Below, in pieces: positions 6,546-64,000 of a DNA stretch of 64,000 nucleotides. Source of the DNA: an uncultured delta proteobacterium (GTDB lineage Bacteria; Myxococcota_A; UBA9160; UBA6930). The notes under the pieces were generated by a model, which worked only from the letters and a program-made list of their open reading frames with translations, ran no database searches and was not told the DNA's origin. How positions within the stretch are numbered: position 1 is the first letter of the stretch; every line of letters starts with the position of its first letter. The DNA lies in contig CAWAPH010000036.1 of assembly GCA_963783795.1 (NCBI GenBank), positions 4,412 to 68,411 on the forward strand. The letters run 5' to 3'. The translations under genes and the position numbers were made by a program.

Positions 6546-7352
6546 CTAGCGGCGTGCGGCGCGGGCCCTCTGCAGGGCGAGCTGCGCTCCGGCGTGATCT
6601 GGATCGTACTCCAGCGCCTCCTCGAACAACGCGATGGCGGCGTCCAGGTCCGATCGGGATGCGAGCAGGCCCTGCGCGTAGGCCCTCCGAGACAGCTCCG
6701 CCCGCAGGGCCTCGAGCTCCGGCCGTAGCTCTTCCGCCAGCCGCGGATCCTGGGCCGCCGCGCGCCCGTAGGCCTCGAACGCGCCGGAAAGATCCCCCTT
6801 GGCGCGACGCGACGCTGCAAGGCGCGCGAGCTGTGGCGCGGTGAGCGGCGGCGGATCGACGGCGGCAGAACTGGAGACACCGGGGGGAGTCTCCACGTAA
6901 CGATCCACCTCGGAAGCGCCGGGCACGGCCCGGGCTGCATTCTCCTTCATCAGGCGAATCGACCTGCGCCTCTCGAGGGCCTGCAAGCGGGCGAGGGCAT
7001 CGCTGCTGCGAGGGTCGAGCGCAAGTGCCGCGAGATAGTGGCGCCGCGCGCTGGCTTCGCCGGCAGCCGATCTTCCTGCGGCGATCTGCGCCCGCACGGC
7101 CCGAGCGATCCGCTTCTCCAGCGAAGCGATCGCGCTGCGGACTTCGGGCGCGTCGTCATCCCAGGTGGCGGCGACCCGCCACTCGAGCAATGCCCGCGCC
7201 AACTCACCCTCGGCCTCCAACGCCCGGGCGGCCGCCTTCCGCGCGTCGAGCCCCGCAGCGCCCGGTACCGGCCCATTCGGACTCCCCGGCCCCGCACAGC
7301 CGACCAGGACCGCCAGCACCGCACCCAACACGGCCGGAACGCCCCGGATCAC
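6546..7352 (-). CDS. TPR-repeat lipoprotein
   Basis: Last 268 codons of track ORF 6546..8435. GTG start at 7352 overlaps the deacetylase stop (GTGA). 'VIRGVPAVLGAVLAVLVGCAG' is a signal plus lipobox. TPR-like repeats ('HYLAALALDPRSSDALARL', 'ALFEEALEYDPDHAGAQLAL'). Confidence 0.6.
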   Translation of the reverse strand: MIRGVPAVLGAVLAVLVGCAGPGSPNGPVPGAAGLDARKAAARALEAEGELARALLEWRVAATWDDDAPEVRSAIASLEKRIARAVRAQIAAGRSAAGEASARRHYLAALALDPRSSDALARLQALERRRSIRLMKENAARAVPGASEVDRYVETPPGVSSSAAVDPPPLTAPQLARLAASRRAKGDLSGAFEAYGRAAAQDPRLAEELRPELEALRAELSRRAYAQGLLASRSDLDAAIALFEEALEYDPDHAGAQLALQRARAARR

Positions 7353-21502: not shown

Positions 21503-22849
21503 ATGCAGCCGCAGGAAATCACCGACAACATGTTTCTCCCGCTTCCCGGGCTACCCCCGGTTCTGATCACGAAGACCGAGGGGGTGTACCTGTACGATGG
21601 CTCCGGGAACAGGATCCTCGACGCTTCGGGCGGGCCGATGGCGGTCACCATCGGCCACGGCCGGCCGGAGGTGGCCGACGCGGCCGCCCGCGTCCTCCGG
21701 GAGGTCTCCTACGTGCTCCCCGTGTTCGCTTCCGAAGCCAGGATCGAGCTGGTCAAGCGCATCAAGAAGCTGCTCCCGGAGCAGCTTCGCAACGTCTACT
21801 TCTGCTCTGGCGGGTCGGAGGCGAACGAGGCGGCGATCAAGCTCGCCCGCCAGTACCAGGTGCTGGCCGGTCGGGAGTCCCGGTACAAGATCATCTCCCG
21901 CAACCTCAGCTACCACGGCATGACCATGCTCACGCTCTCGATCAGCGACGTGAAGATGCGGCAGCGGGACTTTCTCCCCATGCTGTGGAAGAACCCCCGA
22001 GTCGAGGCCTGCTACTGCTATCGCTGTCCATTCGGGAAGGAATACCCCGGCTGCGACATCGCTTGCGCGCGGCAGCTCGAGGAGCGGATTCTCGCCGAGG
22101 GGCCCGACACCGTCGTCGCCTTCATCGCCGAGCCGATCGTCGCCTCGGCCGGCGGCGGGCTGGTGCCCCCTCCCGAGTACTTCCCGATCATCCGCGAGAC
22201 CTGCGACAAGTACGACGTCGTGTTCATCGCAGACGAGATCGTCACGGGCTTCGGAAGGACGGGAAGGAACATGGGGTTGGAACACTTCGGCGTCATCCCC
22301 GACATTGCCACCTTCGCCAAGGGCGTGAGCAGCGGCTACGCCCCCCTCGCCGGGATGGCCGTGAGCGACGATCTCGTCGCGACCTTCGAGGAGAAGCAGG
22401 CGGAGTTCCAGCACCTCTACACGTTCGCAGCCCATCCGGTCGCCTGTGCGATCGGCAGCGAGGTGATGCGGATCGTCGAAGAGGAGAACATGATCGCGCG
22501 CGCCGAGCAGATCGGGAAATACCTGCACGAGAGCCTGCTCGGTCTCATGGATCTCCCCATGATCGGCGACATCCGCGGCAAGGGAATGCTCTGGGGGATC
22601 GAGTTCGTCAAGGACAAGGAGACCAAGGAGCCGTTCGCGAAGGAGAAGAACGTCAAGATGGACGTTCTGGTGCAATGCCTGCTGAAGGGCGTCTTCTTCT
22701 ACCCCGGGTACTACGAAGACGAACTCGGCCGAGGCGACCAGCTGATGATCGCCCCCCCCTTCATCATCACCGAGGAGCAGATCGACGAATTCGTCTCGAT
22801 CCTGAGGGAGACGCTCGAGGGCTCACGCGACAAGTACTACGCGGACTGA
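21503..22849 (+). CDS. class III (omega) aminotransferase, PLP-dependent
   Basis: 'SGGSEANEAAIKLAR', 'FIADEIVTGFGRTG', 'TFAKGVSSGY' (PLP lysine). Confidence 0.9.
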   Translation: MQPQEITDNMFLPLPGLPPVLITKTEGVYLYDGSGNRILDASGGPMAVTIGHGRPEVADAAARVLREVSYVLPVFASEARIELVKRIKKLLPEQLRNVYFCSGGSEANEAAIKLARQYQVLAGRESRYKIISRNLSYHGMTMLTLSISDVKMRQRDFLPMLWKNPRVEACYCYRCPFGKEYPGCDIACARQLEERILAEGPDTVVAFIAEPIVASAGGGLVPPPEYFPIIRETCDKYDVVFIADEIVTGFGRTGRNMGLEHFGVIPDIATFAKGVSSGYAPLAGMAVSDDLVATFEEKQAEFQHLYTFAAHPVACAIGSEVMRIVEEENMIARAEQIGKYLHESLLGLMDLPMIGDIRGKGMLWGIEFVKDKETKEPFAKEKNVKMDVLVQCLLKGVFFYPGYYEDELGRGDQLMIAPPFIITEEQIDEFVSILRETLEGSRDKYYAD

Positions 22850-22885
22850 TCGCGGCGCCCTGCGGCCCGTGACTGCGCGACGTCT

Positions 22886-22921
22886 CACCCGCCGCTCCTG
22901 CCTGCTACCGGGCAGCGGGTG
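22886..22921. terminator. GC-rich stem-loop in a convergent intergenic region
   Basis: 'CACCCGCCGCTCC...GGGCAGCGGGTG', about 11 pairs with one mismatch, 37 nt after the aminotransferase stop. No U-tract. Confidence 0.3.
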
Positions 22922-23028
22922 AACTCGAACGGCGCGTTCTGCGCCACCGGCGCGAAGCTGGCGTTCTGCTCGAGCGTGAGATAGAGGCCAGTCACGCCGC
23001 CCTCCGTCCTTCTGTGTCTTCTCGCGTG

Positions 23029-23046
23029 TTCTTCTGACCAGAAGAA
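23029..23046. repeat. AT-rich 8-2-8 inverted repeat TTCTTCTG-AC-CAGAAGAA
   Basis: Read directly, 13 nt beyond the stop of the MerB-like gene. Preceded by two further CTTCT(G) copies (23008..23025). Confidence 0.3.
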
Positions 23047-23058
23047 AACCGACTTGCG

Positions 23059-23661
23059 TCAGAAGTCGTCGATGATGCTGTTCGCCCGGAGCTTGGTGAA
23101 ATCCACCATTGGGACGAAGAAGAGCGGGTCGCACTCGGCGTCTTCCAGCTCGTAAGTCAGGTCGTGGTCCATCCGGAAACGGATCGGGCGACCACAGCAG
23201 GCGCATTCCGAGTGGATGTCGAAGGAGAGCGGTTCGTTTCTGAGTCGCCCTTGCACGAAGGGCGTCGCGACGGCGTCGGTGCCTCAGGCAGCCCAGAACC
23301 GCTCGCCGCTGCTGAAGTCCAGGTGGTGGGGCGTGGGCTCGGCGGTGACCGGGTAGGCCCAGACGACGTCGCGGCCCTCCGGGCGATACAGGAAGATGAG
23401 CCGCCGCTCCAGCTCGTCCAGGATTTCCACTACCCGCGCCCCCGCCATCTGCAGCTTCTCCGCGACGAAGTCGGGCGACATCGGCCGCCCGAGCCGCGGC
23501 AGCTCACGGACCACGAAGTGGTGCACCCTGCGCTGCTCCTCGTCCAGGCCGCCGAGGGCCAGGTTGGTCTTGCGCGCCTCCGAGGGAAAGCGCCTCCGGA
23601 AGAGACCCCAGGGAATCGGCACCATGCGGCGCCTGATGCCCAGCAGAACTCTTTTCATCAT
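23059..23661 (-). CDS. MerB (organomercurial lyase)-fold protein with in-frame TGA at the catalytic Cys position (candidate selenoprotein; alternatively a nonsense pseudogene)
   Basis: Track ORFs 23284..23718 and 23059..23256 share one frame and are separated only by the TGA at 23284..23286. 'GERFWAA[TGA]GTDAVATPFVQG' aligns with MerB 'DRRLYAW-C96-ALD99-TLIFPALIG'. 'HSECACCGRP' aligns with the Cys117 region. 'ECDPLFFVP' aligns with 'FCCHVHFFAS' (Cys159/160). AGGAGG sits 3-6 nt before the ATGATG at 23661/23658. Confidence 0.6.
23244..23266 (-). promoter_or_regulatory. candidate bacterial SECIS-like hairpin
   Basis: mRNA sense 5'-CGCCCUU CGUGC AAGGGCG-3' (7-bp stem, 5-nt loop containing GU, plus one outer G-C pair). 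The stem starts 20 nt after the UGA. Confidence 0.3.
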
Positions 23662-23821
23662 CAGCCTCCTTGGCCCGAATGATTCACGAGCGTAGGTTCC
23701 CTGCGTTCTTCCTGTCAACGCAGAGGCGGCCGGGCCAGGCTAACCTGGAGCGCCCGGGAAGCGAAATCGCTGCATCCCCGGGCAGCTCGCCCCAGTGCCG
23801 ACCCGGAAGGAGCCTGGAGAC

Positions 23822-28202: not shown

Positions 28203-31200
28203 TCAGTTCGAGGCGGGCGCGCCGAGGTCCACCTGCACCTCTTCGCTCTCTCTCCATCCGTAGCGGACGGCCTTGGCGGTGAGAGTCCCGCCCTCGGGAA
28301 GCTCGAGAGCCTCGCTGTAGAGGCGCCAGTGGCCGCCGCCCAGGCGATATCCGAGGGACGCTCCGGGTTCACTGCAGTCGAGGGCGACCCGCACTCGTCC
28401 GGTGCCGACGTCCTTCACCCTCGCGGATGGCGGCGGCGTGATGGGCTCGACGCCGCCTGGCCAGAAGAGCTCGGCCAGCTCGGCCTCGGGAATCGCGCCC
28501 CGGTCTTCGGTCGCTGCAAGCCAGGCGTCGAGTGCGTCCCGCATCCGGTCGAGCGTGGGAGCGTGGGCCGGATCCTCGGCTAGATTGACGAGCTCGTGAG
28601 GGTCGTCCCGGGTGTCGTAGAGCTCTTCGCGCGAGCGGGGCTCGAACCAGCGCGCCGCCGCGGCATCGAGGGAGCCGCTCTCCCAGAACGACCACAGCTC
28701 TTCCATGCTGTCCAGGTTCTGGCGATAGGCGATGCGTGTTGCCCCCGGCTCCTGCGGGTGGTAGTTGCGAATGTATTTGAAGCGGCGATCGCGAACGGCG
28801 CGCTGGCGATCGGGGAATTCGTCCATCCGGTCCTTGGCCGCGTAGATGTACTCGCGCAAGCCCGCCGGGTCGTCGGCGGTGAAGTCGCGACCCACCATGT
28901 AGTCCGGCGCGCGAATCCCCGCCATCGCGAGAATGGTCGGAGCCAGGTCCACGAAGCTCACCAGGCGGGGATCCTCGCCGCCTGCCTTCAAGGCGGCCGG
29001 CCGGAGCGCGTCGGGCCAGCGCACGATCATCGGAACACGGATTCCCGAGTCGAAGACCTCGCGCTTGGCCCGGGGAAGGCCGTCGCCGTGGTCGGTCGTC
29101 CAGATCACGATGGTGGAGTCCGAGAGCCCATCCCGGTCGAGCGCCTCCAGCAGCGCGCCTACCTCTTCGTCCATCTTGTGAATGTTGTTGTAGTGCCGGG
29201 CGATGTCGCGGCGCACCGTGGGCGTGTCGGGATAGTAGGGCGGTACCGGGACGTCCCGTGCAGCGACCACGTCGTGATGGCCCCAGAAGGTGATCCGGTA
29301 GATCAGCTGGAAAAGGAGGTGGGTGCCGCTCTTCGGGAATCCGGTGCGGGGGAAGACGCCGCTCTCGTGGGTCGAGTGGAAATTGACGAGCCCGAAGAAG
29401 GGCTGGTCGGGCTCCCGCTCCCGCCAGTCTGCGCGAAATCGACCCTCGCGATCCCAGATCGTGAAAGGGCCGGAGCCCGGCCAGATCTTGCTGAACTGAT
29501 AGTCGAGCTTGAGTTGGGTGAAGGTGTGATAGCCCGCAGCGCGGAGCAGCTCCGGATAGGCCTTCACCTCCGGCGGGGGCACGGCTCGGTAGCCGCCCTG
29601 GAAGCTCCGCATGTGCTGTGCTCCCAGTGCCATCTGGTGCACACCGGTGATGTGTGCGGCGCGGCTCGGGGCGCAGACCCCCGCGGTGGTGAAGGTGTTG
29701 GGATACCGCACGCCTTCGCTGGCCAGCCGGTCGATGTGGGGAGTCACGGCCAGCGGGTCGCCGAAAGCACCGACCCGCGGCCCCATGTCCTCCGCCATCA
29801 ATACCAGGATGTTGGGAGGTTCTGGACCCGGGTCGGCCTCGCTCGCCTCCGTGTCGAGGCCGACAGCTTTCGGCGCCCGCCGCGCCCGCACCTTCTGCTC
29901 GAAGCTGAAGGCGGCCCGGAGAAGCGCGCGCTCGCCGAGGAAGCCGCCGATGAAGCTCAGGCCCACCGGCTCGCCGGACTCGCGGTAGCCCGCCGGCACG
30001 CTCACCGCCGGATAGCCGGCCGGGGGGTAGCTCACGAAGAAGGACGAGCCCATCGCGACCAGCATCTCCAGGTCGCGATCGGCCAGCATGCCGTCGATCC
30101 ACTCGCGGGCGCGGGAGACGCTTCGAGCGCTGGCTTCGCGGTACTCCGCATCCGTGGCGCTGCTCGCCTGGGCGGCGCCCAGCATGTCCTGACCGAACGG
30201 TGCACGCTCACCCGGGTCTTCCGCGTTGAAGGCGATCACCTCCGCCAGCGACCTCACCGGCGCCTTCATGGCATCGAGAAACTTGCCGACGCCGCGGGGG
30301 AAGTCGCGGTTCGCGAGCACGAAGAAGTCGTCCCGGAAAGGCTTGAGGTCGAGGAGTGAGATGGGCGGAAGCTCGACCAGCTCCGCGCCGCACTGCTCCA
30401 GCACCTCCAACGCCCCGTGCAGCATCTCGTCGTCGTAGCCGCGCAGGCGGACCACGCCGACGCGCCTGTCCCTCAGGCCATCCTCATCCAGAACTCCCCG
30501 GTAGGAGGTCCCGACCCGCAAGACTCGCAAGGTCGTGGGATCGTTCGCGTCCTCCCCTGAGAGCGCGTCGAGCAGAATCGCGGCGTCCGTCACGTTGCGC
30601 GTCATCGGACCGGCGGTGTCCTGCGCATCCACCATGGGGATGATTCCGTGACGGCTCACCAGCCCCACGGTGGGCTTGACGGCCACGACGCTGTTCTGGG
30701 ACGCGGGAGAGATGAGCGAGCCCCATGTCTCGGTTCCGACGGCTGCGGTGACGAAGCTCGCGGCCACCGCCACCGCCGATCCCGAGCTCGAGCCGCTGAC
30801 GTCGAACTCGCCGTACGGATTTCGCACCTGGCCACCCACGGAGCTGAACCCGTTCGGGAGCGTGCTCGACATGTAGTTGGCCCACTCGCTGAGCGCGCTC
30901 TTGCCGAGGACGACCGCGCCGGCCTCGCGTAGACGCCGCACCAGGAAGGCATCGCGATCCGTCCGGAGCCCCTCCAGGGCCTTCGCGCCCGCCGTGGTGT
31001 GCAGGGCGCCTCCGGTGGCGATGTTGTCCTTCACGAGGACGGGGATGCCGTGCATGAGACCCCGTGCGCCACCTCGAGCGCGCTCCGCGTCCAGTGCTCT
31101 CGCAGTCTCGGCCGCGTCCGGATCGAGCTCGGTCACGCTGCGGAGCTGGCCATCGTACTTCCGGATGCGGCGGAGGTAGTAGAGGACGAGCTCCTCGGAG

Positions 31201-31499
31201 CTGAGCCGGCCGCGCTCGAAGAAGCCCTGGATCTCGACGATGTCCGCACCCCCGAGCAGGGCGTCGAGCTCGCGCACGCGCGCCTCCCCCAGCTGCGCGA
31301 TCCCCGCTTCGAAAGGCGAGAAGTCCAGCTCGCGCCGGCCGCTGTAGCTGGCGGGAGTCTCGAGCTGCCGCGCGAGGTCCTCCCGCTCGGGCTGACGGAC
31401 GAATCGATCCACCAGGGCGCGGTCCACCAGGCCAGTGTACCAGGCGACCCCCGCCAGGGCGGCCAGTGCCAGCAGCGCGACCGCGGCGGCCCGCTTCAT
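28203..31499 (-). CDS. fusion protein: amidase-signature amidase + formylglycine-type sulfatase (+ C-terminal beta-sandwich)
   Basis: One uninterrupted 1098-codon ORF. N-terminal signal/anchor. Amidase motifs 'IPVLVKDNI' and 'VSGSSSGSAVAVAA'. From about residue 575 a sulfatase domain with 'NILVLMAEDMG' and 'CAPSRAAHITG' (C-x-P-x-R). Confidence 0.85.
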   Translation of the reverse strand: MKRAAAVALLALAALAGVAWYTGLVDRALVDRFVRQPEREDLARQLETPASYSGRRELDFSPFEAGIAQLGEARVRELDALLGGADIVEIQGFFERGRLSSEELVLYYLRRIRKYDGQLRSVTELDPDAAETARALDAERARGGARGLMHGIPVLVKDNIATGGALHTTAGAKALEGLRTDRDAFLVRRLREAGAVVLGKSALSEWANYMSSTLPNGFSSVGGQVRNPYGEFDVSGSSSGSAVAVAASFVTAAVGTETWGSLISPASQNSVVAVKPTVGLVSRHGIIPMVDAQDTAGPMTRNVTDAAILLDALSGEDANDPTTLRVLRVGTSYRGVLDEDGLRDRRVGVVRLRGYDDEMLHGALEVLEQCGAELVELPPISLLDLKPFRDDFFVLANRDFPRGVGKFLDAMKAPVRSLAEVIAFNAEDPGERAPFGQDMLGAAQASSATDAEYREASARSVSRAREWIDGMLADRDLEMLVAMGSSFFVSYPPAGYPAVSVPAGYRESGEPVGLSFIGGFLGERALLRAAFSFEQKVRARRAPKAVGLDTEASEADPGPEPPNILVLMAEDMGPRVGAFGDPLAVTPHIDRLASEGVRYPNTFTTAGVCAPSRAAHITGVHQMALGAQHMRSFQGGYRAVPPPEVKAYPELLRAAGYHTFTQLKLDYQFSKIWPGSGPFTIWDREGRFRADWREREPDQPFFGLVNFHSTHESGVFPRTGFPKSGTHLLFQLIYRITFWGHHDVVAARDVPVPPYYPDTPTVRRDIARHYNNIHKMDEEVGALLEALDRDGLSDSTIVIWTTDHGDGLPRAKREVFDSGIRVPMIVRWPDALRPAALKAGGEDPRLVSFVDLAPTILAMAGIRAPDYMVGRDFTADDPAGLREYIYAAKDRMDEFPDRQRAVRDRRFKYIRNYHPQEPGATRIAYRQNLDSMEELWSFWESGSLDAAAARWFEPRSREELYDTRDDPHELVNLAEDPAHAPTLDRMRDALDAWLAATEDRGAIPEAELAELFWPGGVEPITPPPSARVKDVGTGRVRVALDCSEPGASLGYRLGGGHWRLYSEALELPEGGTLTAKAVRYGWRESEEVQVDLGAPASN

Positions 31500-31576: not shown

Positions 31577-34450
31577 TCAGACGTGCCCCCGCACCCTCTC
31601 CACCTCGATGGCCACCTCCTTGGGAGTGTTGTTCATGGAGAGATAGTGACCCCGGTACTGCAGGTGCCCGTAGTCGCCCACCATGTTGTTGGGCTTGAGC
31701 GAGGCGGGCAGCACGTCGTTCTGCACCGCGCCATCCGGGAACTGGTAGCCCTCCCAGGCGTGGTAGCAAATCACCTCCCCCGGCTGGACGACCGGTGAGA
31801 CCTTCGCGTGCAGCACGAACTCCCCCACGTCGTTGTAGACGCGAATCCGGTCGTGGTCGGATATCCCCCGCTCGCGGGCATCCACCTGGCTCATGTAGGC
31901 CACCGGCCCGCCCCGCTGCAGGCGCAGCATCTGCTGGTTGGCGCGCATGATGGAGTGCTGGCTCCAGCGGGCGTGACCCCCGTTCAGGCGCAGCGGGTAG
32001 GGCCCACCCGCTGCGACCGGCTCCTTGTGCGTGGTCAGCTGCTCGCCCACCTCCAGGTACCACTCGTGGTCGATGTAGAACTGCTGGCGGCCCGTCAGCG
32101 TCGGCCACGGGTTCTTCTGCTTGTGGAACCAGCCGAACTGGGTGATCGGCTCGCTGTAGTCGAAGTCGCTCATCACCGAGTTGAGCCCCAGGGCCAGAAA
32201 CAGGCCCGGGATCGCCTCGATCTTGACCATTCCGTCTTCGACGGCTTTCTTCCACGGCTGCTCGCCGAGGTCGGTGGCCCGGGTGATCGGCGAGTTCTGC
32301 ATGATGTAGTCGAGTGCCTTGACCTCGCCCTTCTCGCCCTCCGTGTACGCGCCGTTCGCGGTGAGCTGCTCGTAGAGATTCGAGAGCGTGTGCGTGCTGC
32401 CGTTGATGTCGGTGCAGTCCTCGATGCCCCTCGCCCTGGCCCGCTCCTGGATCTTCCTGGCCAGGCCGAGCACGACGTCCCACTCGTGCTTGGACTCGTA
32501 CAGCGGCTGCACGGCGCGGTCGCCCACCACCACGTAGGGGATGTAGGAGATCACGTACTTGATGCCCGGCTTCTCGTAGTAGCCGGCGGCGGGAAGGATG
32601 TAGTCCGACCACATCCCCGAGGTCGACATCCGGAAGTCGCAGGTCACGATGGTGTCGATGCTCTTCCAGAGGCTGTCCCGGATCGTCCGCGGGTTGGGCC
32701 AGCGGCGAAGCGGGTTGGGGCCCGAGTAGTAGAGGAACTTGGGACGCTTGGGAGGTTTCGGATGGACGGGCTGCCACTCATTCTCGAAGACATCCTTCAT
32801 GTACTCGGCGACCGGGCGCGGCAGCGCCGGATCCGCATACGCGTCCGTGGCAGCCGTCTCGGCGAACTTCGGGTCGTGCGCGTAGAGCCAGGGGATCAGC
32901 GGCACCAGCCGCCTGTGCTGCTTGGTCATCGCGAACATGAACTTCGCGATGTCCTGCATCTGGGGGCGGTCCATCGGATCCGGCTCGCGCGGCTCGGTGG
33001 CCATCCCTCCATCCATGTTGAACAGCGAGAAGCCCGGGAAGGGCCACCAGGTCGACACCTTGATCCCCGAGCCGGGCTTGCCTCCGCTGTTTCCCGTCAG
33101 AGCCATCAGGTAGACCATTCCGCGCTGGAACAGGTCCGAGTGGTAGTGCTTGCAGGCGCCCCAGGAGGAGAAGATCATCGCGGAACCGGCCTTCGCCAGC
33201 TCCCGAGCCACCACGCGCATGTTCTTGGCCGGGACGCCGGTGATCTCCGCGGCGCGCTCGGGCGTGTACTCCGCCAGATGGGCGCGCAGGAACTCGAACA
33301 CCGGACGCACGCGCACTCGCGTTCCGTCGAGCAGACGCACCCTGTGGGATCCCTCCAGCTCCGGGTCGGTATCGTCGTCGAGGGCGATGCTCATCACCTC
33401 GGAGCCCCAGGTCCCGTTCGCCAGCTGCCTCTTGCCCGTTGCGGCGTTCCAGAAGTAGAACTGGTCGTCCGCTCCACCCTCTTCGAGGTCGCTTTCGCGG
33501 AGGAAGCGGCCGTTGTCCTCCCGCACCAGGAAGGGAAGATCCGTCTGCTCCTTCACGTACTCGGCGTCGTAGAGGCTCTCCTCGACGAGCACGTGCGCCA
33601 TGCCCAGCGCCAGGGCGGCATCCGTACCCTGGCGCGGATTGAGCCAGCGGTCCGCGTGGAGCGTCGAGGGGCTGAAGTCGGGGGCCACCGTCACCACCTT
33701 GGCTCCCCGGTAGCGCGCCTCGTAGAGGAAGTGGGCATCGGGCTGCCGCGTGTAGTTCGGGTTGGCGAGCCAGATGAAGATGTAGTCCGAGAGGAACCAG
33801 TCGTCGGAGGTCCCCTCGCTCATGTAGGTGCCCCAGCTCTGGATCAGACCCACCGGCAGGTCACCGACTCCCGCCCAGTTGTCGATGGTGATCGCCCCGA
33901 GGCAGGCCATGAACAGGTGCATCTCCATCACCGAGCCGATGCCGGCGTCGATGTTGGTGGTGCCCGAGTCGTAGATGACGCAGTCGGCGCCGTCTTCGAC
34001 GATGACGTCCAGGAGCTTGTCGGCGACCTCCTCGAAGGCCTGATCCCAGCTCAGCCGCTGCCAGCGGCCCGAGCCGCGTTCGCCGACGCGCTTCATCGGG
34101 TACCGGATACGCGTCGGATCGTACATCTGCGCTGCGTACGCGCAGCCCGGGCCACAGCCCCTCGGGTTGAAGTCCGGGATGTCCTTGAACTCCTGCGGGT
34201 AGTTCGCGTTCTGCTCCTCGCGCCAGACGATCCCGTCCTTCACGTAGGCATCGTACGAACAGCTCTCGATACAGTTCACCCGCAGGTGCGACACCTTGAC
34301 CACGTCGTCCCAGGTCCACTCCTCGCGGTAGACGTCCTCCCAGCCCCGATACTCATATGGCTGGGACATCAGCTTCTTGAGGCGCGCCTGGGGATCGATC
34401 GGCTTGAAGCGACGCAGGGCCGGAGTGGACGAGACAGCGGATTGGGACAC
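31577..34450 (-). CDS. molybdopterin oxidoreductase, NarG/EbdA-like (type II DMSO reductase family) catalytic subunit
   Basis: 957 aa. N-terminal 'WDDVVKVSHLRVNCIESCSYDAYVKDGIVWREEQNANYP...NPRGCGPGC...RIRYPMKR' parallels the NarG FS0 region. C-terminus 'DHDRIRVYNDVGEFVLHAKVSPVVQPGEVICYHAWE...LKPNNMVGDYGHLQY'. An RR dipeptide ('ALRRFKP') is present but no hydrophobic h-region. Confidence 0.85.
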   Translation of the reverse strand: MSQSAVSSTPALRRFKPIDPQARLKKLMSQPYEYRGWEDVYREEWTWDDVVKVSHLRVNCIESCSYDAYVKDGIVWREEQNANYPQEFKDIPDFNPRGCGPGCAYAAQMYDPTRIRYPMKRVGERGSGRWQRLSWDQAFEEVADKLLDVIVEDGADCVIYDSGTTNIDAGIGSVMEMHLFMACLGAITIDNWAGVGDLPVGLIQSWGTYMSEGTSDDWFLSDYIFIWLANPNYTRQPDAHFLYEARYRGAKVVTVAPDFSPSTLHADRWLNPRQGTDAALALGMAHVLVEESLYDAEYVKEQTDLPFLVREDNGRFLRESDLEEGGADDQFYFWNAATGKRQLANGTWGSEVMSIALDDDTDPELEGSHRVRLLDGTRVRVRPVFEFLRAHLAEYTPERAAEITGVPAKNMRVVARELAKAGSAMIFSSWGACKHYHSDLFQRGMVYLMALTGNSGGKPGSGIKVSTWWPFPGFSLFNMDGGMATEPREPDPMDRPQMQDIAKFMFAMTKQHRRLVPLIPWLYAHDPKFAETAATDAYADPALPRPVAEYMKDVFENEWQPVHPKPPKRPKFLYYSGPNPLRRWPNPRTIRDSLWKSIDTIVTCDFRMSTSGMWSDYILPAAGYYEKPGIKYVISYIPYVVVGDRAVQPLYESKHEWDVVLGLARKIQERARARGIEDCTDINGSTHTLSNLYEQLTANGAYTEGEKGEVKALDYIMQNSPITRATDLGEQPWKKAVEDGMVKIEAIPGLFLALGLNSVMSDFDYSEPITQFGWFHKQKNPWPTLTGRQQFYIDHEWYLEVGEQLTTHKEPVAAGGPYPLRLNGGHARWSQHSIMRANQQMLRLQRGGPVAYMSQVDARERGISDHDRIRVYNDVGEFVLHAKVSPVVQPGEVICYHAWEGYQFPDGAVQNDVLPASLKPNNMVGDYGHLQYRGHYLSMNNTPKEVAIEVERVRGHV

Positions 34451-45294: not shown

Positions 45295-46450
45295 GCAGCG
45301 AGAATCCGCGCCGTCGAAGCTCCTCGACGTAGAGTGCCGGCGGCACGGCGATCTCGGCCGGGTGTACGCCGCGCGGTGTCTGGCCTCGCGCGCTCATCAC
45401 GGTCTTGATCGAAGCGTCCCAGCCGGTGGTGCGCTCCATCGCCGTGAAGCCGGTATCCGGATCGTAGCGGTCGATCAGCTCGACGAGCACCTCAGCCGGC
45501 TTGCCGTCCTTGACACCCCTGGCCACGACGCGCACCACCACGAAGTCGCGCTCTTCCGGCCCCGCCTTGATCTTCGGGTCCAGCAGGGTGTGCAGCACCT
45601 CGCGCGGCGAGACGCTCGCCCCGCCCACCTCGACCGGCTGCTCCTCCAACAGGCCCGCGTCCATGTAGGCCTTCCACTGGGTGAAGTGGCCGGGCCAGCG
45701 AAGCGTCTTGTTCCACAGGGTCTGGAGCTTCCCTTCGAAGGTCCAGGGCATGGTCGACGTCCCGCCGCCGGCGACGAACGCCTCCATCTCGCCGATGGGG
45801 TCGGGAAGCACGATGGTCTCGTAGTCCTCCGGCAGGAACGTCGGCACCTCGACGCGCCGGCCGCCGCGGATGAAGTGAGCCACACCGTAGTACTCGTTGG
45901 TGAGACCGGCGATGTTGAAGGTGAGGATGTAGTTGAAGGGAGGCCTGGGCTCGGCGGGGTTGCCGCCATCCCACATCATGACCTCGTCCGTGCTGTCGAG
46001 CTTGCTCATCGCGTAGGTGATCAAGCTGGTGCCCATGCCGGGCACCTGACCACAGTCGGGGATGATCGCGATGCCCGCGTCCTCCGCCTGCGGGCTCTGC
46101 AGCAGCTGCATTTGCACCAGCTCGGTGTTGCCGCCGAGGTCGGTCATGCACGCAGCGGCGCGAATCGCGGCGCTGGTGATGCCGGGGTTGTGCCAGTAGG
46201 GAACCGCCGACAGGAAGGCGTCCACGCCACTCAGCATGGCCTCGAGCTGCCGGGAATCCGTGACGTCGACGCGGCAGGGCTCCGCCACCTGCCTGTCTAG
46301 CAGACGGTTGACGCGTGCGGCCGACTTCTCGGCTGCAGCGGGATCGAGATCCGCGAGCAGAACGCGCTTCGCATCGCCGAAGCGCGCCATGTCGTAGGCC
46401 GCCGCCGTGCCCTGCCTTCCGCTGCCGAGGACTGCGTACACCTGACTCAC
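45272..46450 (-). CDS. saccharopine dehydrogenase family protein (NAD(P)-binding)
   Basis: 'VYAVLGSGRQGTAAAYDM' Rossmann motif and the Sacchrp_dh C-terminal domain. GTG start overlaps the MttB-family stop (GTGA). Confidence 0.8.
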   Translation of the reverse strand: MSQVYAVLGSGRQGTAAAYDMARFGDAKRVLLADLDPAAAEKSAARVNRLLDRQVAEPCRVDVTDSRQLEAMLSGVDAFLSAVPYWHNPGITSAAIRAAACMTDLGGNTELVQMQLLQSPQAEDAGIAIIPDCGQVPGMGTSLITYAMSKLDSTDEVMMWDGGNPAEPRPPFNYILTFNIAGLTNEYYGVAHFIRGGRRVEVPTFLPEDYETIVLPDPIGEMEAFVAGGGTSTMPWTFEGKLQTLWNKTLRWPGHFTQWKAYMDAGLLEEQPVEVGGASVSPREVLHTLLDPKIKAGPEERDFVVVRVVARGVKDGKPAEVLVELIDRYDPDTGFTAMERTTGWDASIKTVMSARGQTPRGVHPAEIAVPPALYVEELRRRGFSLREGFDAG

Positions 46451-47892
46451 TGGCCACTCCCTTCTCGCGCGCGAACGATCTCACGAATCTGCTGCTCGCA
46501 GCGCAGCGGCTCCGGCTCGTGTGTGGCGAGAATCTCCCTGGCGCGTTCACGCGCCCTGCCGAGAGCCGTCGGCCGGCCGGCATCCTTCCACGCCTCGAGA
46601 GGCATGCGATCGAGCAGTGTGGGCTGCCAGATCTTCCGCATCTGCTGGAGCGTGTGCTCCTGCTCCATGAAGTGGCCCCCGGGACCCACCGTCTCGATCA
46701 CTTCGACGGCGAGGCTCTCCGGATCGACGGGGATGTCCGCCGACAGATGCCGCAGCATGTCGAAGAGCTCGCAGTCCAGGAGCAGCTGCTCGAAGGAGAA
46801 GACCTTGGCGGCCTGCAGCAGGCCCGCTCCGTAGACGATGTCGGCCCCGGCCAGGAGACTCATCACCCCCGAGACTGCGTTCTCCACGCCGGCCTGCCAG
46901 TCGATTCCCTTGGCGCCCGTCGCGAAGGTGCCGACGCAGCTCGGCAGCCGGTAGAAGCGGGCCATCTCGGCGCACGCCGCCTGCAGCAGCGCGTCCTCGG
47001 GACCGCCGGCGGTGACGCCACCCCTGCGAAGCTCCATTGCCGTGCTGCAGGATCCGTAGAAGGTCGGGGCCCCCGGGTAGAAGAGCTGCAGCAGCGCGAT
47101 GCCGGCCAGCAGCTCGGCGTTGGTGAGGACCACGGTCCCCGCCAGGGTCGCCGGCGCGGTCGCACAGGCGATCGCCATGTTCACGAAGCCGGTCGGCAGG
47201 CCGGCGGCGGCAAAGACGAAGGCCGCCTCGAGCGAGCCGGCATCGTACGACAGGGGGCTGATGCTGCACTGGAACCCGGAGAGGATGGGGCGCCGCCTGA
47301 GTGCATCCGCCCCCCCTGCGATCTCCGCGGCCATCTGCACGGCGGTTCCGGCGCTCGCAGGATCCACCACGGTCATCGCCTGTGCGTGCTTGCTCGAGCC
47401 GGTGAGCAGAGCTGCGGTCTCGACGACCGGCTGCATCCGGGGCGCGCAGTCGGCGGCGCTGAGCGCGGGACAGAGGATCGAGATGGCATCGAGCGCATCG
47501 GCCACGCGCACGGCGGCTTCCAGATCGGCGCACACCGAGGAGCGTAGCTCGCCCGTCTCCAGGTCGGTGAGCTGGACAGCGTTGCCGTCGAGGGACAGGT
47601 GGCTCTGCCTCCCGTCGAGGAGAACATCATCGTCCGGGTGGCGGGCGCAGAGGGTGTAGCTGCTCGGCGCGAAGGCCAGTGCTTGCGCAACGATTTCGGG
47701 GGGAAAGCGGACCCGCCGGGTCCCGGAGTCGACGACCAGTCCCAGCTCGCGCGCCTGCTCCTGGCGTTCGGGAGCCAGCGGCATGCTGAGCCCGGTCTCG
47801 CTGAGGACGCGTAGACTCGCTTCGTGGATGGCGCGGACCTTGTCCGCGCCCAGCACACGGAGCGGCCTCTCGGAACGCGCGCTGACGACCAC
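46447..47892 (-). CDS. MttB-superfamily methyltransferase (non-pyrrolysine type)
   Basis: Lower 481 codons of ORF 46447..48246. 'IHEASLRVLSETG', 'FQCSISPLSYD', 'GFVNMAIACATAPATLAG', 'GAGLLQAAKVFSFEQLLLDCE', 'GPGGHFMEQEHT'. GTG at 47892 follows GGAGG. No in-frame TAG. Confidence 0.8.
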   Translation of the reverse strand: MVVSARSERPLRVLGADKVRAIHEASLRVLSETGLSMPLAPERQEQARELGLVVDSGTRRVRFPPEIVAQALAFAPSSYTLCARHPDDDVLLDGRQSHLSLDGNAVQLTDLETGELRSSVCADLEAAVRVADALDAISILCPALSAADCAPRMQPVVETAALLTGSSKHAQAMTVVDPASAGTAVQMAAEIAGGADALRRRPILSGFQCSISPLSYDAGSLEAAFVFAAAGLPTGFVNMAIACATAPATLAGTVVLTNAELLAGIALLQLFYPGAPTFYGSCSTAMELRRGGVTAGGPEDALLQAACAEMARFYRLPSCVGTFATGAKGIDWQAGVENAVSGVMSLLAGADIVYGAGLLQAAKVFSFEQLLLDCELFDMLRHLSADIPVDPESLAVEVIETVGPGGHFMEQEHTLQQMRKIWQPTLLDRMPLEAWKDAGRPTALGRARERAREILATHEPEPLRCEQQIREIVRAREGSGQ

Positions 47893-47975
47893 GAGCGAAT
47901 CTCCTCCGGGTCTCGCCGTATCGGCTGGCGTGCGGAGGCCCGAACGGCGCCAGGGTCCCCCACACATCCGGTACA

Positions 47976-49140
47976 ATGAGCTTCCCGCGGGATGCGAGCG
48001 ACCCGCACCCCGCGGCCAGGAACCATACGACGCATCGGGAATCGACGAAAGGAACGGCCCTGAGCACCGAATCCGAGAGTGAGAGACACCCGCTCCCGCC
48101 CCTGCCGCCGCAGCCCGGCGACGTGCCGTGGCCGACCGACGCCTGGCCTCGCGCGGAGATCGACCCCCGGGTGGACCGCGACCTCGTGGCCCGCCTCCTC
48201 GACCACGCGTTCGCGCAGCCCGAGAGCCTCGGCACCACCCACGCACTGCTCGTCGTGCACCGGGGGGCGATCGTGGTGGAGCGCTACGCCGAGGGAATGG
48301 ACGCGAGCACCACGCACGTCTCCTGGTCGATGGCCAAGAGCATGCTCCAGGCCACCATCGGCATCCTCGTGCGCGACGGGCGCATCGATGTCGGGGCGCT
48401 CGCCGACGACCCCGCCTGGAGGAGCCCCGGCGACCCGCGCGCGCACATCACGATCGACCAGCTGCTCAAGATGCGGAGCGGTCTCCTGTTCCACGAGGAC
48501 TACGTCGACGAGCACGTCTCCCACGTGATCGAGATGCTGTTCGGGGCGGGCAAGCCGGATGCCGCGGCCTACGCTGCCGCGCTGCCCCTGGAGCACGAGC
48601 CGGGCTCCTTCTTCTCGTACTCGAGCGGCACCTCCAACATCCTCTCGGCTGTCGTGGCTCGCGCACTCGGGGCGCGCGGCGATGCCTACCGCGAGTTCCT
48701 CCGCCGCGAGCTCTGGGATCCGCTCGGGATGACGTCGGCGGACCCGCGCTTCGACGAGGCCGGCCACTGGATCGCGTCGTCGTTCGTGTTCGCCACCGCG
48801 CAGGACTTCGCGCGCTTCGGACTGCTCTACCTGCGCGACGGCATCTGGGAAGGCCGGAGGATCCTGCCGGAGGGATGGGTCGGACTACGCGCGAACCCAC
48901 ACGGGGACCGACGAGGAGATCGGCCTCGGCTACGGCGCGCACTGGTGGCTGATCCCCGGCAGCCTGGGGATCTTCCGCTGCTCGGGCTACAACGGCCAGC
49001 GCATCGCCGTAGTGCCGCCGCTGGATCTCGTGGTGGTGCGGCTGGGCGTCTCGCCGGTGGATCTCCAGCCGGAGCTCGAGCGCTTCAGCATGGAGCTGAT
49101 CGACGCATTCCGGCCGCTGCTCGGATGGAGGCGAATCGTG
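47976..49140 (+). pseudogene. beta-lactamase-family serine hydrolase with a +1 frame change; the corrected frame runs without a stop into the next gene
   Basis: 'SWSMAKS' (SxxK) and 'YSSGTSN' lie in the frame of ORF 47976... 'DYARTHTGTDEEIGLGYGAHWWLIPGSLGIFRCSGYNGQRIAVVPPLDLVVVRLG' lies in the +1 frame. The junction is at about 48882. Confidence 0.7.
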
Positions 49141-62889: not shown

Positions 62890-64000
62890 TCAGCTCACCG
62901 CCTCGACACGGCAGGGGACGAATCGGTGGTATGGAGTCGCCGCCAACCGATCCCGATGGGTGTTCTTGGCCAGCCGGTTGGCATTGGCTCCGAACGTCTT
63001 CCCCTGGTGGATTAAGCCGAATCCGTGCGGCATCAGGAGATATCCGGGGCGGGTGGCTTCCGTCACCTCGAGCTCGATGGACTCCTCGCCGGCTTCCGTG
63101 CTCACTCGCACGATCTGCCCGTCTTTCAGACCGTTCTCTTCCGCGTCCTTGGGGTTCATGTACAAGGTGCAGGCCCGCTTGCCTTCGTTCCAGATGGGAT
63201 CACGCATGCATGAGTTGGCGTTCATATCCATGTGATTGCCCGAAGACATGATGAAGGGGAAGGCCCGGTCGGGCTCGAGCGCTGCTGCTTCCCTGGCCGG
63301 ATCGATCTCTTCCATCCACGCCCGGAGCTCGGGAACAGCCAGGTGAATGCGGCCATCTTCGGTCTCCAATCGCTCCAGGTTGTTGCTCGTGTCCACTTCC
63401 CCGGCCCAGATCCCCTGGGGATGCTCCAGACCGGCCTTGAAGATCTCCTCGCCCAGCAGCGGCCCGGGGGTGAAGCCCGCCCGGCCGGCATTCTGCTGGG
63501 CTTCCGGAGGCAGGGTCTGCAGCGCAGCCCAGACGGTGGCCAGGTTGATCGAACCCATGCTCTTGCCCAGGGTCCTGGCGAGGACGAAGGGAATGCGAGG
63601 AGCGACCTCGGGATTGGCTCCCATGTACTCCATCAAGGCAAGGCCGAACTTCAATCGGTCGCCAGCTGTCGGCTGCTTCGGAAAGTGATCCCGGTATGTC
63701 TGGAACCAGGCCGAGACGCTCCGCCAGCCGCGTGAAGATCTCCGCCGCCTCCAGCTGCTCTCCCTCCGGCTCGACCGACGGCTGGTTGATCTGGAAGAAC
63801 ACCTTGGGATAGCCGCCCAGTACGAGTCCCGTGTTCCACGACTCGAATCCAGAGAGATCGGGCAGAACATACTGGGATGCGGCCGCCGTCTCGGTCATGG
63901 CGACGTCGATGGTGACCAGCAGGTCCAGCTCTTCGAACGCTTCCTCGTAGGCCGTGGTGTCGGCGAAGGAGCGAAGCGGGTTGGCGGCGCTGACGATCAC
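62890..64000 (-). pseudogene. second molybdopterin oxidoreductase (C-terminal two-thirds; runs off the window) with one +1 frame change
   Basis: 'LDLLVTIDVAMTETAAASQYVLP...EAAEIFTRLAERLG' lies in ORF 63200..64000. 'WFQTYRDHFPK...FIMSSGNHMDMNANSCMRD...LLMPHGFG...VPCRVEAVS*' lies in ORF 62890..63870. The junction is at about 63710. Paralogous to 49991..52161. Confidence 0.75.

Follow-up and report, generated by a model that had tools for sequence, protein, structure and literature searches.

A MerB-superfamily gene with UGA at both catalytic cysteine columns, a predicted double selenoprotein distinct from SaoL

Introduction

Cleavage of the carbon–mercury bond by MerB, with two cysteines and an aspartate, is a textbook reaction. 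Here we describe a gene of the MerB superfamily in which both of these cysteines correspond to in-frame UGA codons that most likely encode selenocysteine (Sec). It lies on a stretch of 64,000 nucleotides of contig CAWAPH010000036.1, from an uncultured delta proteobacterium, and we refer to this whole stretch as the window. The closest selenoprotein described so far is SaoL (NF040728), a MerB-like organometallic lyase encoded in the SAO locus (Haft & Gwadz, bioRxiv 10.1101/2022.07.06.499078). In SaoL, the only Sec belongs to a CU motif and occupies the MerB Cys159 column, the Cys96 column retains a cysteine, and the gene is part of a nine-gene SAO operon of strict anaerobes. According to reviews, the ‘Organic mercuric lyase MerB2’ in Table S3 of Peng et al. 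2016 is also SaoL. In a 2026 inventory of 119 prokaryotic selenoprotein families, SaoL is the sole MerB-type member, and no double-Sec entry has a MerB fold; the families of Haft & Tolstoy 2025 are included in the 2026 review table.

The original prediction of a Sec-containing MerB-like enzyme at this locus, made from the sequence alone, left it open whether such a family was already catalogued. SaoL is catalogued, and on every test of SaoL membership the window gene came out as something else. The two resemble each other in matching PF03243, in having UGA (Sec) at the MerB Cys159 column and in keeping the aspartate. They differ in that SaoL has a single Sec in a CU motif, whereas the window family has predicted Sec at both columns and an F/Y-U motif. 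The window family is also spread across different and broader taxa, and it has no conserved gene neighbourhood. As judged from sequence, the predicted family is a second, distinct clade of MerB-superfamily selenoproteins, apart from both canonical MerB and SaoL.

A single gene with two in-frame UGA codons

The minus-strand open reading frames (ORFs) 23284..23718 and 23059..23256 are in the same frame and are separated by one TGA (23284..23286), as originally proposed and as translation bears out. This TGA had been regarded as the only interruption in a gene extending over 23059..23661, with a product of ~200 amino acids. The codon at 23059..23061 is a second in-frame TGA, beyond which reading continues for 57 codons to a TAG at 22885..22887 (minus strand). 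The gene therefore extends over 22885..23661, and the read-through frame gives a product of ~258 amino acids. The central proposal, that a catalytic cysteine is replaced by TGA in a gene encoding the MerB fold, is supported, with the correction that there are two such codons instead of one. There are two candidate starts, ATG at 23661 and ATG at 23658, and the sequence AGGAGG at 23665..23670 favours the latter. Since the convergent aminotransferase gene ends at 22849, the extended gene does not overlap it. The features of the coding sequence are as follows.

22885..23661, minus strand: full coding sequence of the predicted MerB-superfamily double selenoprotein, 258 codons plus the TAG stop at 22885..22887
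23284..23286, minus strand: first in-frame TGA (TGA#1), predicted Sec126, at the MerB Cys96 column
23275..23277, minus strand: GAC codon of Asp129, three residues after the predicted Sec126, at the column of MerB Asp99 (proton donor)
23194..23205, minus strand: conserved cysteine cluster, C-A-C-C in the window, in which Cys153 corresponds to MerB Cys117
23059..23061, minus strand: second in-frame TGA (TGA#2), predicted Sec201, at the MerB Cys159 column; read as a stop by ORF callers
22888..23058, minus strand: the C-terminal 57 codons, which need read-through of TGA#2 and are the equivalent of the final MerB core helices

The observations presented below argue that 22885..23661 is one gene for a MerB-superfamily protein, and that the UGA codons standing for its two catalytic cysteines are most likely read as Sec.

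Relationship to MerB and assignment of the active-site columns

For scoring of the window protein against Pfam hidden Markov models (HMMs), U was replaced by C. The Pfam MerB family, PF03243, matches with 47.3 bits (cutoff 27, E=2.5e-12), in an alignment of residues 106-237 to profile positions 2-121 of 126 that spans both TGAs. Columns were assigned by aligning a profile of the family to the solved structures of MerB and MerB2. In this alignment, TGA#1 corresponds to Cys96 and Asp129 to Asp99 (‘YAA-U-A-x-D’ against ‘YAW-C-A-L-D’), Cys153 corresponds to Cys117, and TGA#2 corresponds to Cys159 (‘IIDAF-U-RKSVFFWSEEHA’ against ‘VRQSF-C-CHVHFFASVPTA’). Alignment to the MerB Pfam families and structures had been suggested as a check on the original prediction, and the score above cutoff and the matching columns speak in its favour. 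It had placed the TGA on Cys96, with the aspartate three residues on as Asp99, and had matched ‘HSECACCGRP’ to the Cys117 region, both in agreement with the profile alignment. Its match of ‘ECDPLFFVP’ to the Cys159 region was wrong, because the alignments place Cys159 on TGA#2.

Asp129 is invariant in 81 of 81 sequences, with a codon that varies (GAC in 64, GAT in 17). Cys153 is likewise invariant, and Cys156 is present in 90% of sequences. The two catalytic thiols at the Cys96 and Cys159 columns are absent, both columns being occupied by UGA; the predicted Sec at both would be a chemical analogue of the thiol pair, not a loss of the site.

The fold was tested on a family member that is 54% identical to the window protein (P0003). 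Its AlphaFold model has a predicted local distance difference test score (pLDDT) of 88.4 and a predicted template modelling score (pTM) of 0.86. In a comparison of this model with the PDB, MerB and MerB2 account for all of the top 11 matches (E 1e-11 to 3e-7, target template modelling (TM) scores 0.61-0.78), and the next match has an E-value of only 0.016. On the model of this one member, the family has the MerB fold.

Two solved proteins serve for comparison. With MerB of plasmid R831b (PDB 3F0P, 1S6L; EC 4.99.1.2), the P0003 model gives a Foldseek E-value of ~1e-11 and a target TM score of ~0.75. The proteins are colinear, and Cys96/Asp99/Cys117/Cys159 of MerB correspond to U126/D129/C153/U201. 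However, identity is ~19%, the window family has an N-terminal extension of ~35 amino acids and predicted Sec in place of both catalytic cysteines, and merR, merT, merP and merA are not found near the window gene. Of all solved structures, MerB2 (PDB 5C17) matches the family profile best by sequence (E 1e-4), and its C-terminal ‘C-x-x-x-x-F-x-S-x-E-H-A’ aligns directly. Identity in this case is 13%, and MerB2 differs in having cysteine at both positions.

Conservation of both UGA codons and selection downstream of them

An exhaustive profile search of 1.84 billion representative proteins yielded 883 matches with an E-value of 1e-3 or lower. Of the 150 best among these 883, most are ~125 amino acids long and stop at profile position 125, which immediately precedes TGA#1. 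All source names of family members are ‘hypothetical protein’. We also scanned genomic loci, with one genome per species, and found 247 that encode relatives, of which the best 80 (42-72% identity) were kept. By record title, these 80 loci include Thermodesulfobacteriota, Myxococcota, Acidobacteriota, Spirochaetota and Gemmatimonadota, as well as Chloroflexota, Bacteroidota, Rokuibacteriota, Binatia and Margulisiibacteriota. The family is widespread, mostly in uncultured bacteria.

TGA is present at both columns in all 80 loci, which places the two-UGA design in at least 80 bacterial species, and in 77 of the loci the distance between the two TGAs is 74-75 codons. The sequences around the TGAs are highly conserved, with the motifs GE..xAAU[AG]xDAxATPFVQG and IIDxFU[RK]xSVFFWSEEHA. 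Two loci show local deviations. In L015 (717-981), an insertion of 13 codons between the Sec codons increases their spacing to 88 from the usual 74-75. In L076, a third in-frame TGA (~6562-6564) lies 13 codons ahead of the second conserved one, and could be a third Sec codon, a sequencing error or a sign of incipient decay.

The regions downstream of both TGAs are under the same selection as the region upstream. When the window is compared with its nine closest orthologues by the Nei-Gojobori method, the ratio of nonsynonymous to synonymous substitution rates (dN/dS) is 0.16 for the N-terminal part, 0.18 for the segment between the TGAs and 0.16 for the segment downstream of TGA#2. Over the 45 codons past TGA#2, none of the 80 loci has a stop in frame 0, and 71 have stops in frame +1. 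Many invariant residues with normal synonymous variation occur between and after the TGAs (for example L140, R141, C153, P184, H212, R217, G225 and Y227), and the C-terminal segment can be aligned with both the MerB core and the C-terminus of MerB2. A lack of purifying selection beyond the TGA, or the lack of a conserved Cys/TGA column in orthologues, had been named as grounds for abandoning the original prediction. Selection proved to be equal on both sides, and the orthologues have conserved TGA/TGA in 80 of 80 loci, with cysteine in other relatives.

Conserved hairpins downstream of each UGA

Synonymous entropy is ~0 bits at only two places in the gene, namely codons 134-138 (CCC TTC GTG CAA GGG) and codons 206-211 (TTC TTC TGG TCA GAA GAA). 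Invariant residues elsewhere retain 1.4-1.9 bits, and codons in the same genes vary freely at F116 (TTC 53, TTT 22), P104 (CCG 51, CCC 17) and E120 (GAG 53, GAA 28). Without being directed to these sites, RNAalifold predicts one hairpin at each of them, 12-20 nucleotides 3′ of each UGA. In position, these hairpins resemble the selenocysteine insertion sequence (SECIS) of bacteria.

23246..23264, minus strand: hairpin 1, SECIS-like, with a stem of 7 pairs (23258..23264 with 23246..23252)
23253..23257, minus strand: CGUGC loop of hairpin 1, nucleotides 30-34 counted from the U of TGA#1
23026..23049, minus strand: hairpin 2, SECIS-like, with nine pairs and one internal mismatch, encoding V-F-F-W-S-E-E-H
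23036..23039, minus strand: GGUC tetraloop of hairpin 2, nucleotides 23-26 counted from the U of TGA#2

The stem of hairpin 1 consists of a core of 5 pairs found by RNAalifold and 2 outer pairs. It is paired in 94.3% of alignment cells, and compensatory CG/UA changes occur at the two outer pairs, where 19 double-change cells compare with 9.9 +/- 2.0 in shuffled alignments, a count reached in 0 of 500 shuffles. Hairpin 2 is paired in 100% of cells (79 distinct sequences), and its only changes are to G-U wobble pairs.

As a positive control, we used the segment of Escherichia coli fdhF 3′ of its UGA, which is a 100% match to annotated selenocysteine-containing fdhF in >5,400 genomes. This control folds with its GGUC loop at nucleotides 22-25. 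The fdhF SECIS and hairpin 2 are thus alike in lying within the coding sequence just 3′ of the UGA and in having a GGUC apical tetraloop, which in hairpin 2 is one nucleotide further from the UGA. They differ in stem sequence, and hairpin 1 differs further in its 5-nucleotide CGUGC loop, which is ~8 nucleotides further from its UGA.

A separate pattern overlaps TGA#2. A small hairpin at 23050..23068 (minus strand) has this codon in its loop and is followed by GTTTTCTTCT; it was flagged as terminator-like. The stem is not conserved in orthologues, where it falls in the variable alignment columns 4-12, and the T-run is the 5′ arm of hairpin 2. The pattern could mislead annotation into calling TGA#2 a true stop.

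Relatives with cysteine or other residues at the UGA columns

Natural exchanges between Sec and cysteine occur among the relatives, and those at TGA#1 provide a partly informative control on hairpin 1. We name such forms by their residues at column 1 (TGA#1) and column 2 (TGA#2). The C/U forms are ~200 amino acids long, with cysteine at column 1 and a stop at TGA#2; they include P0001 and P0002, which are 68% identical to the window protein. Column 1 is also cysteine in P0034, P0036 and others. The S/C forms P0035 and P0113 have cysteine at column 2 and serine at column 1. The DNA of seven C/U forms has TGT or TGC at column 1, and TGA#2 is present in every case. Hairpin 2 is kept in six of the seven; in the seventh, L087, it is disrupted, near a contig end. 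Hairpin 1 is lost in two (L085 and L087), which lack core pairs present throughout the 81 U/U sequences. This pattern is in part what would be expected of a SECIS that fell into disuse after a recent change from TGA to TGY.

Further ‘full-length’ homologues, gene calls from metagenomes (JGI/ENA, P0003-P0033), have tryptophan at both Sec columns. Because this W results from gene calling with genetic code 4 on contigs of ~1 kb, P0003-P0033 are really TGA/TGA, and we rejected them as candidate Cys forms. The code-4 artefact hides selenoproteins as seemingly ordinary proteins.

More divergent full-length relatives (P0114, P0115, P0119, P0172 and P0183) have neither cysteine nor Sec at either column, with E, G, D or S at column 1. 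From their sequences, they are probably non-catalytic or differently functioning paralogues. The C/U form closest to the window protein, L081 (190-2331), is located between an AbiEii-family gene and a PIN-domain gene, in a context that resembles a toxin-antitoxin system.

Evidence weighing against Sec insertion

Several results count against Sec insertion at these codons. Genes for the machinery are one gap: selA, selB, selD and tRNA-Sec are all missing from the 64-kb window, and no tRNA-Sec was found in the 60 loci that were scanned for tRNAs. The hairpins are a second weak point. An Rfam scan of 22800..23800 (E<=10) gave no SECIS family and only spurious matches to microRNAs, long non-coding RNAs and small nucleolar RNAs. 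The SECIS check downstream of TGA#1 that had been proposed with the original prediction gave a conserved hairpin and no significant Rfam match. Because hairpin 2 is invariant, it shows no covariation. In single-sequence folding, the energies of the hairpins are not significant (z -0.5 to -0.9), although this test does not discriminate, since the genuine fdhF SECIS is also non-significant (z -1.3). Lastly, hairpin 1 is retained exactly in five of the seven C/U forms despite their cysteine at column 1, which reflects either a recent change or a further role of the hairpin.

Possible function and mechanism

If both UGA codons are decoded as Sec, SelB carrying Sec-tRNA(Sec) would bind each hairpin as the ribosome arrives at the UGA, and Sec would be inserted twice. 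In the resulting protein, the two selenolates would chelate the metal of an R-metal compound, Asp129 would protonate the leaving carbon, as in MerB, and the Se-Se-Asp site would retain the metal ion until its transfer to thiols. The conserved pair Cys153/Cys156 could relay the metal ion to them. We accordingly predict, tentatively and without calling it the probable outcome, a lyase that acts on an organomercurial or on a different organometal. Its substrate is a guess, because mercury-resistance genes are missing from the neighbourhood: merR, merT, merP and merA do not occur in the window, and no mer operon is among the recurrent neighbours in the 80 loci. In addition, a bis-selenolate would be expected to hold Hg(II) very tightly, which makes turnover questionable.

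This tight binding makes a serious rival of a protein that has the MerB fold and two Sec residues and yet is not a turnover lyase, acting instead as a trap, chaperone or sensor for soft metals (Hg, Cu, Ag, Cd) or as a Se-Se redox protein. We regard such a role as possible but somewhat doubtful. It would account for the lack of a mer operon or reductase partner nearby, for the additional conserved Cys153/Cys156 pair and for the existence of divergent relatives with neither Sec nor cysteine. It would also suit the sole recurrent neighbours, which are regulators of the MarR type (~14 of the 80 loci) and of the MerR type (3 loci). Nonetheless, the invariance of Asp129 in all 81 sequences argues against it, because an invariant aspartate is expected for protonolysis and not for simple binding. 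Selenium analogues of MerB mimics also cut Hg-C bonds faster than their sulfur analogues (PMC11639659), which again favours a lyase.

A more specific version of the lyase prediction is that the family is a mer-operon-independent demethylase of anaerobic and sediment bacteria, acting on methylmercury or other organometals, with a Se-Se-Asp site tuned to capturing and cutting picomolar organometals for which a thiol-based MerB cannot compete. We consider this unlikely. If it were true, the family would supply an enzyme for mer-independent demethylation in mercury-methylating guilds; HgcA is itself usually a selenoprotein. Should the substrate be methylmercury, the family would bear on mercury cycling in anoxic environments.

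Whatever the substrate, a natural version of MerB with both sulfur ligands predicted to be replaced by selenium, across many phyla, would offer a ready experiment on the role of selenium in carbon-metal cleavage or metal capture. Two separate SECIS-like elements in one short bacterial gene would likewise lend themselves, as a compact system, to work on serial UGA recoding. Because the family is missing from the inventory and from the curated models, hundreds of its members stand in public records as truncated ‘hypothetical proteins’. The finding should surprise specialists in selenoproteins and in mercury, a surprise lessened by the fact that SaoL is already known and that the substrate is a guess.

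Alternative explanations for the gene and its UGA codons

That the window gene is an ordinary member of the described SaoL family is very improbable. The two share a superfamily and a Sec at the Cys159 column, and NF040728 is the top NCBIfam match of the window protein. Yet this match scores only 43.6 bits against a cutoff of 140, and nine other members of the family (C/U, S/C and divergent forms) score 27-48 bits, far under every cutoff. On the same score we rejected the C/U forms as SaoL. Scores on the HMMs for canonical MerB equivalogs are low as well (NF033555, 38 bits against 200; NF009710, 39 bits against 193), and the family is absent from the NCBI curated models, with scores far below their cutoffs. 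Moreover, the motif is F/Y-U and not C-U, a further predicted Sec stands where SaoL has Cys99, and the nine-gene SAO neighbourhood is absent from both the window and the 80 loci.

One or both TGAs might instead end translation, leaving an N-terminal domain of 125 amino acids or a protein of 200. Gene callers give exactly these truncated products, and the terminator-like pattern at 23050..23068, with its small hairpin and T-rich run, overlaps TGA#2. Against termination, dN/dS downstream equals that upstream, all 80 loci have an open frame 0 past TGA#2, the C-terminal segment can be aligned with the core of MerB, and the terminator-like stem is variable, with its T-run forming part of hairpin 2. 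We therefore give this explanation hardly any weight.

It is also very improbable that the TGAs, owing to an altered code or to near-cognate readthrough, specify one of the standard amino acids (Trp, Gly or Cys). The many database entries with W at both columns would seem to support this, but these translations come from code-4 calling, and the loci of the family are spread over many phyla in which the standard code applies. It applies here too: in the window, which has a GC content of 67%, TGA terminates 30 of the 46 called genes and is the commonest ordinary stop. A standard amino acid is also opposed by the fact that both columns are those of catalytic cysteines, each with a hairpin at SECIS-like spacing.

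A pseudogene or sequencing error, as a naive reading of a short gene with two in-frame stops might suggest, is effectively refuted by the presence of the same two TGAs in 80 of 80 loci at 42-72% identity, by purifying selection throughout and by the lack of any other stop or frameshift.

Genomic context and minor observations

The neighbours of the gene in the window include an aldehyde dehydrogenase, a class-III aminotransferase, a BNR-repeat protein, a thiamine pyrophosphate enzyme and other metabolic genes. No conserved operon was detected across the 80 loci, in which the best neighbour family occurs in 10. Neighbourhood clusters 0-3 were considered as operon partners and rejected, as they consist of the gene itself and shadow ORFs.

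We also looked for other selenoprotein candidates in the window and rejected the remaining TGA-bridged ORF pairs, which are adjacent genes with their own starts. At two molybdopterin-oxidoreductase genes (31577..34450 and 62890..63870, minus strand), no TGA-bridged frame was seen, and nothing here points to their being selenoproteins. An MttB-family gene (46447..48246, minus strand), similar to trimethylamine methyltransferases, has no in-frame TAG and is therefore a non-pyrrolysine member of its family.

In the 133-nucleotide divergent intergenic region that separates the MerB-like gene from the BNR-repeat gene (23795, plus strand), 23752..23783 forms a palindrome, GCCCGGG-N18-CCCGGGC, which could be an operator or a bidirectional hairpin; an Rfam match to ‘mir-3155’ at this site is spurious. 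Finally, the minus-strand ORF 28203..31499 encodes a single protein of 1098 amino acids that joins an amidase domain (residues 103-474) to a sulfatase domain (residues 695-915), an unusual fusion.

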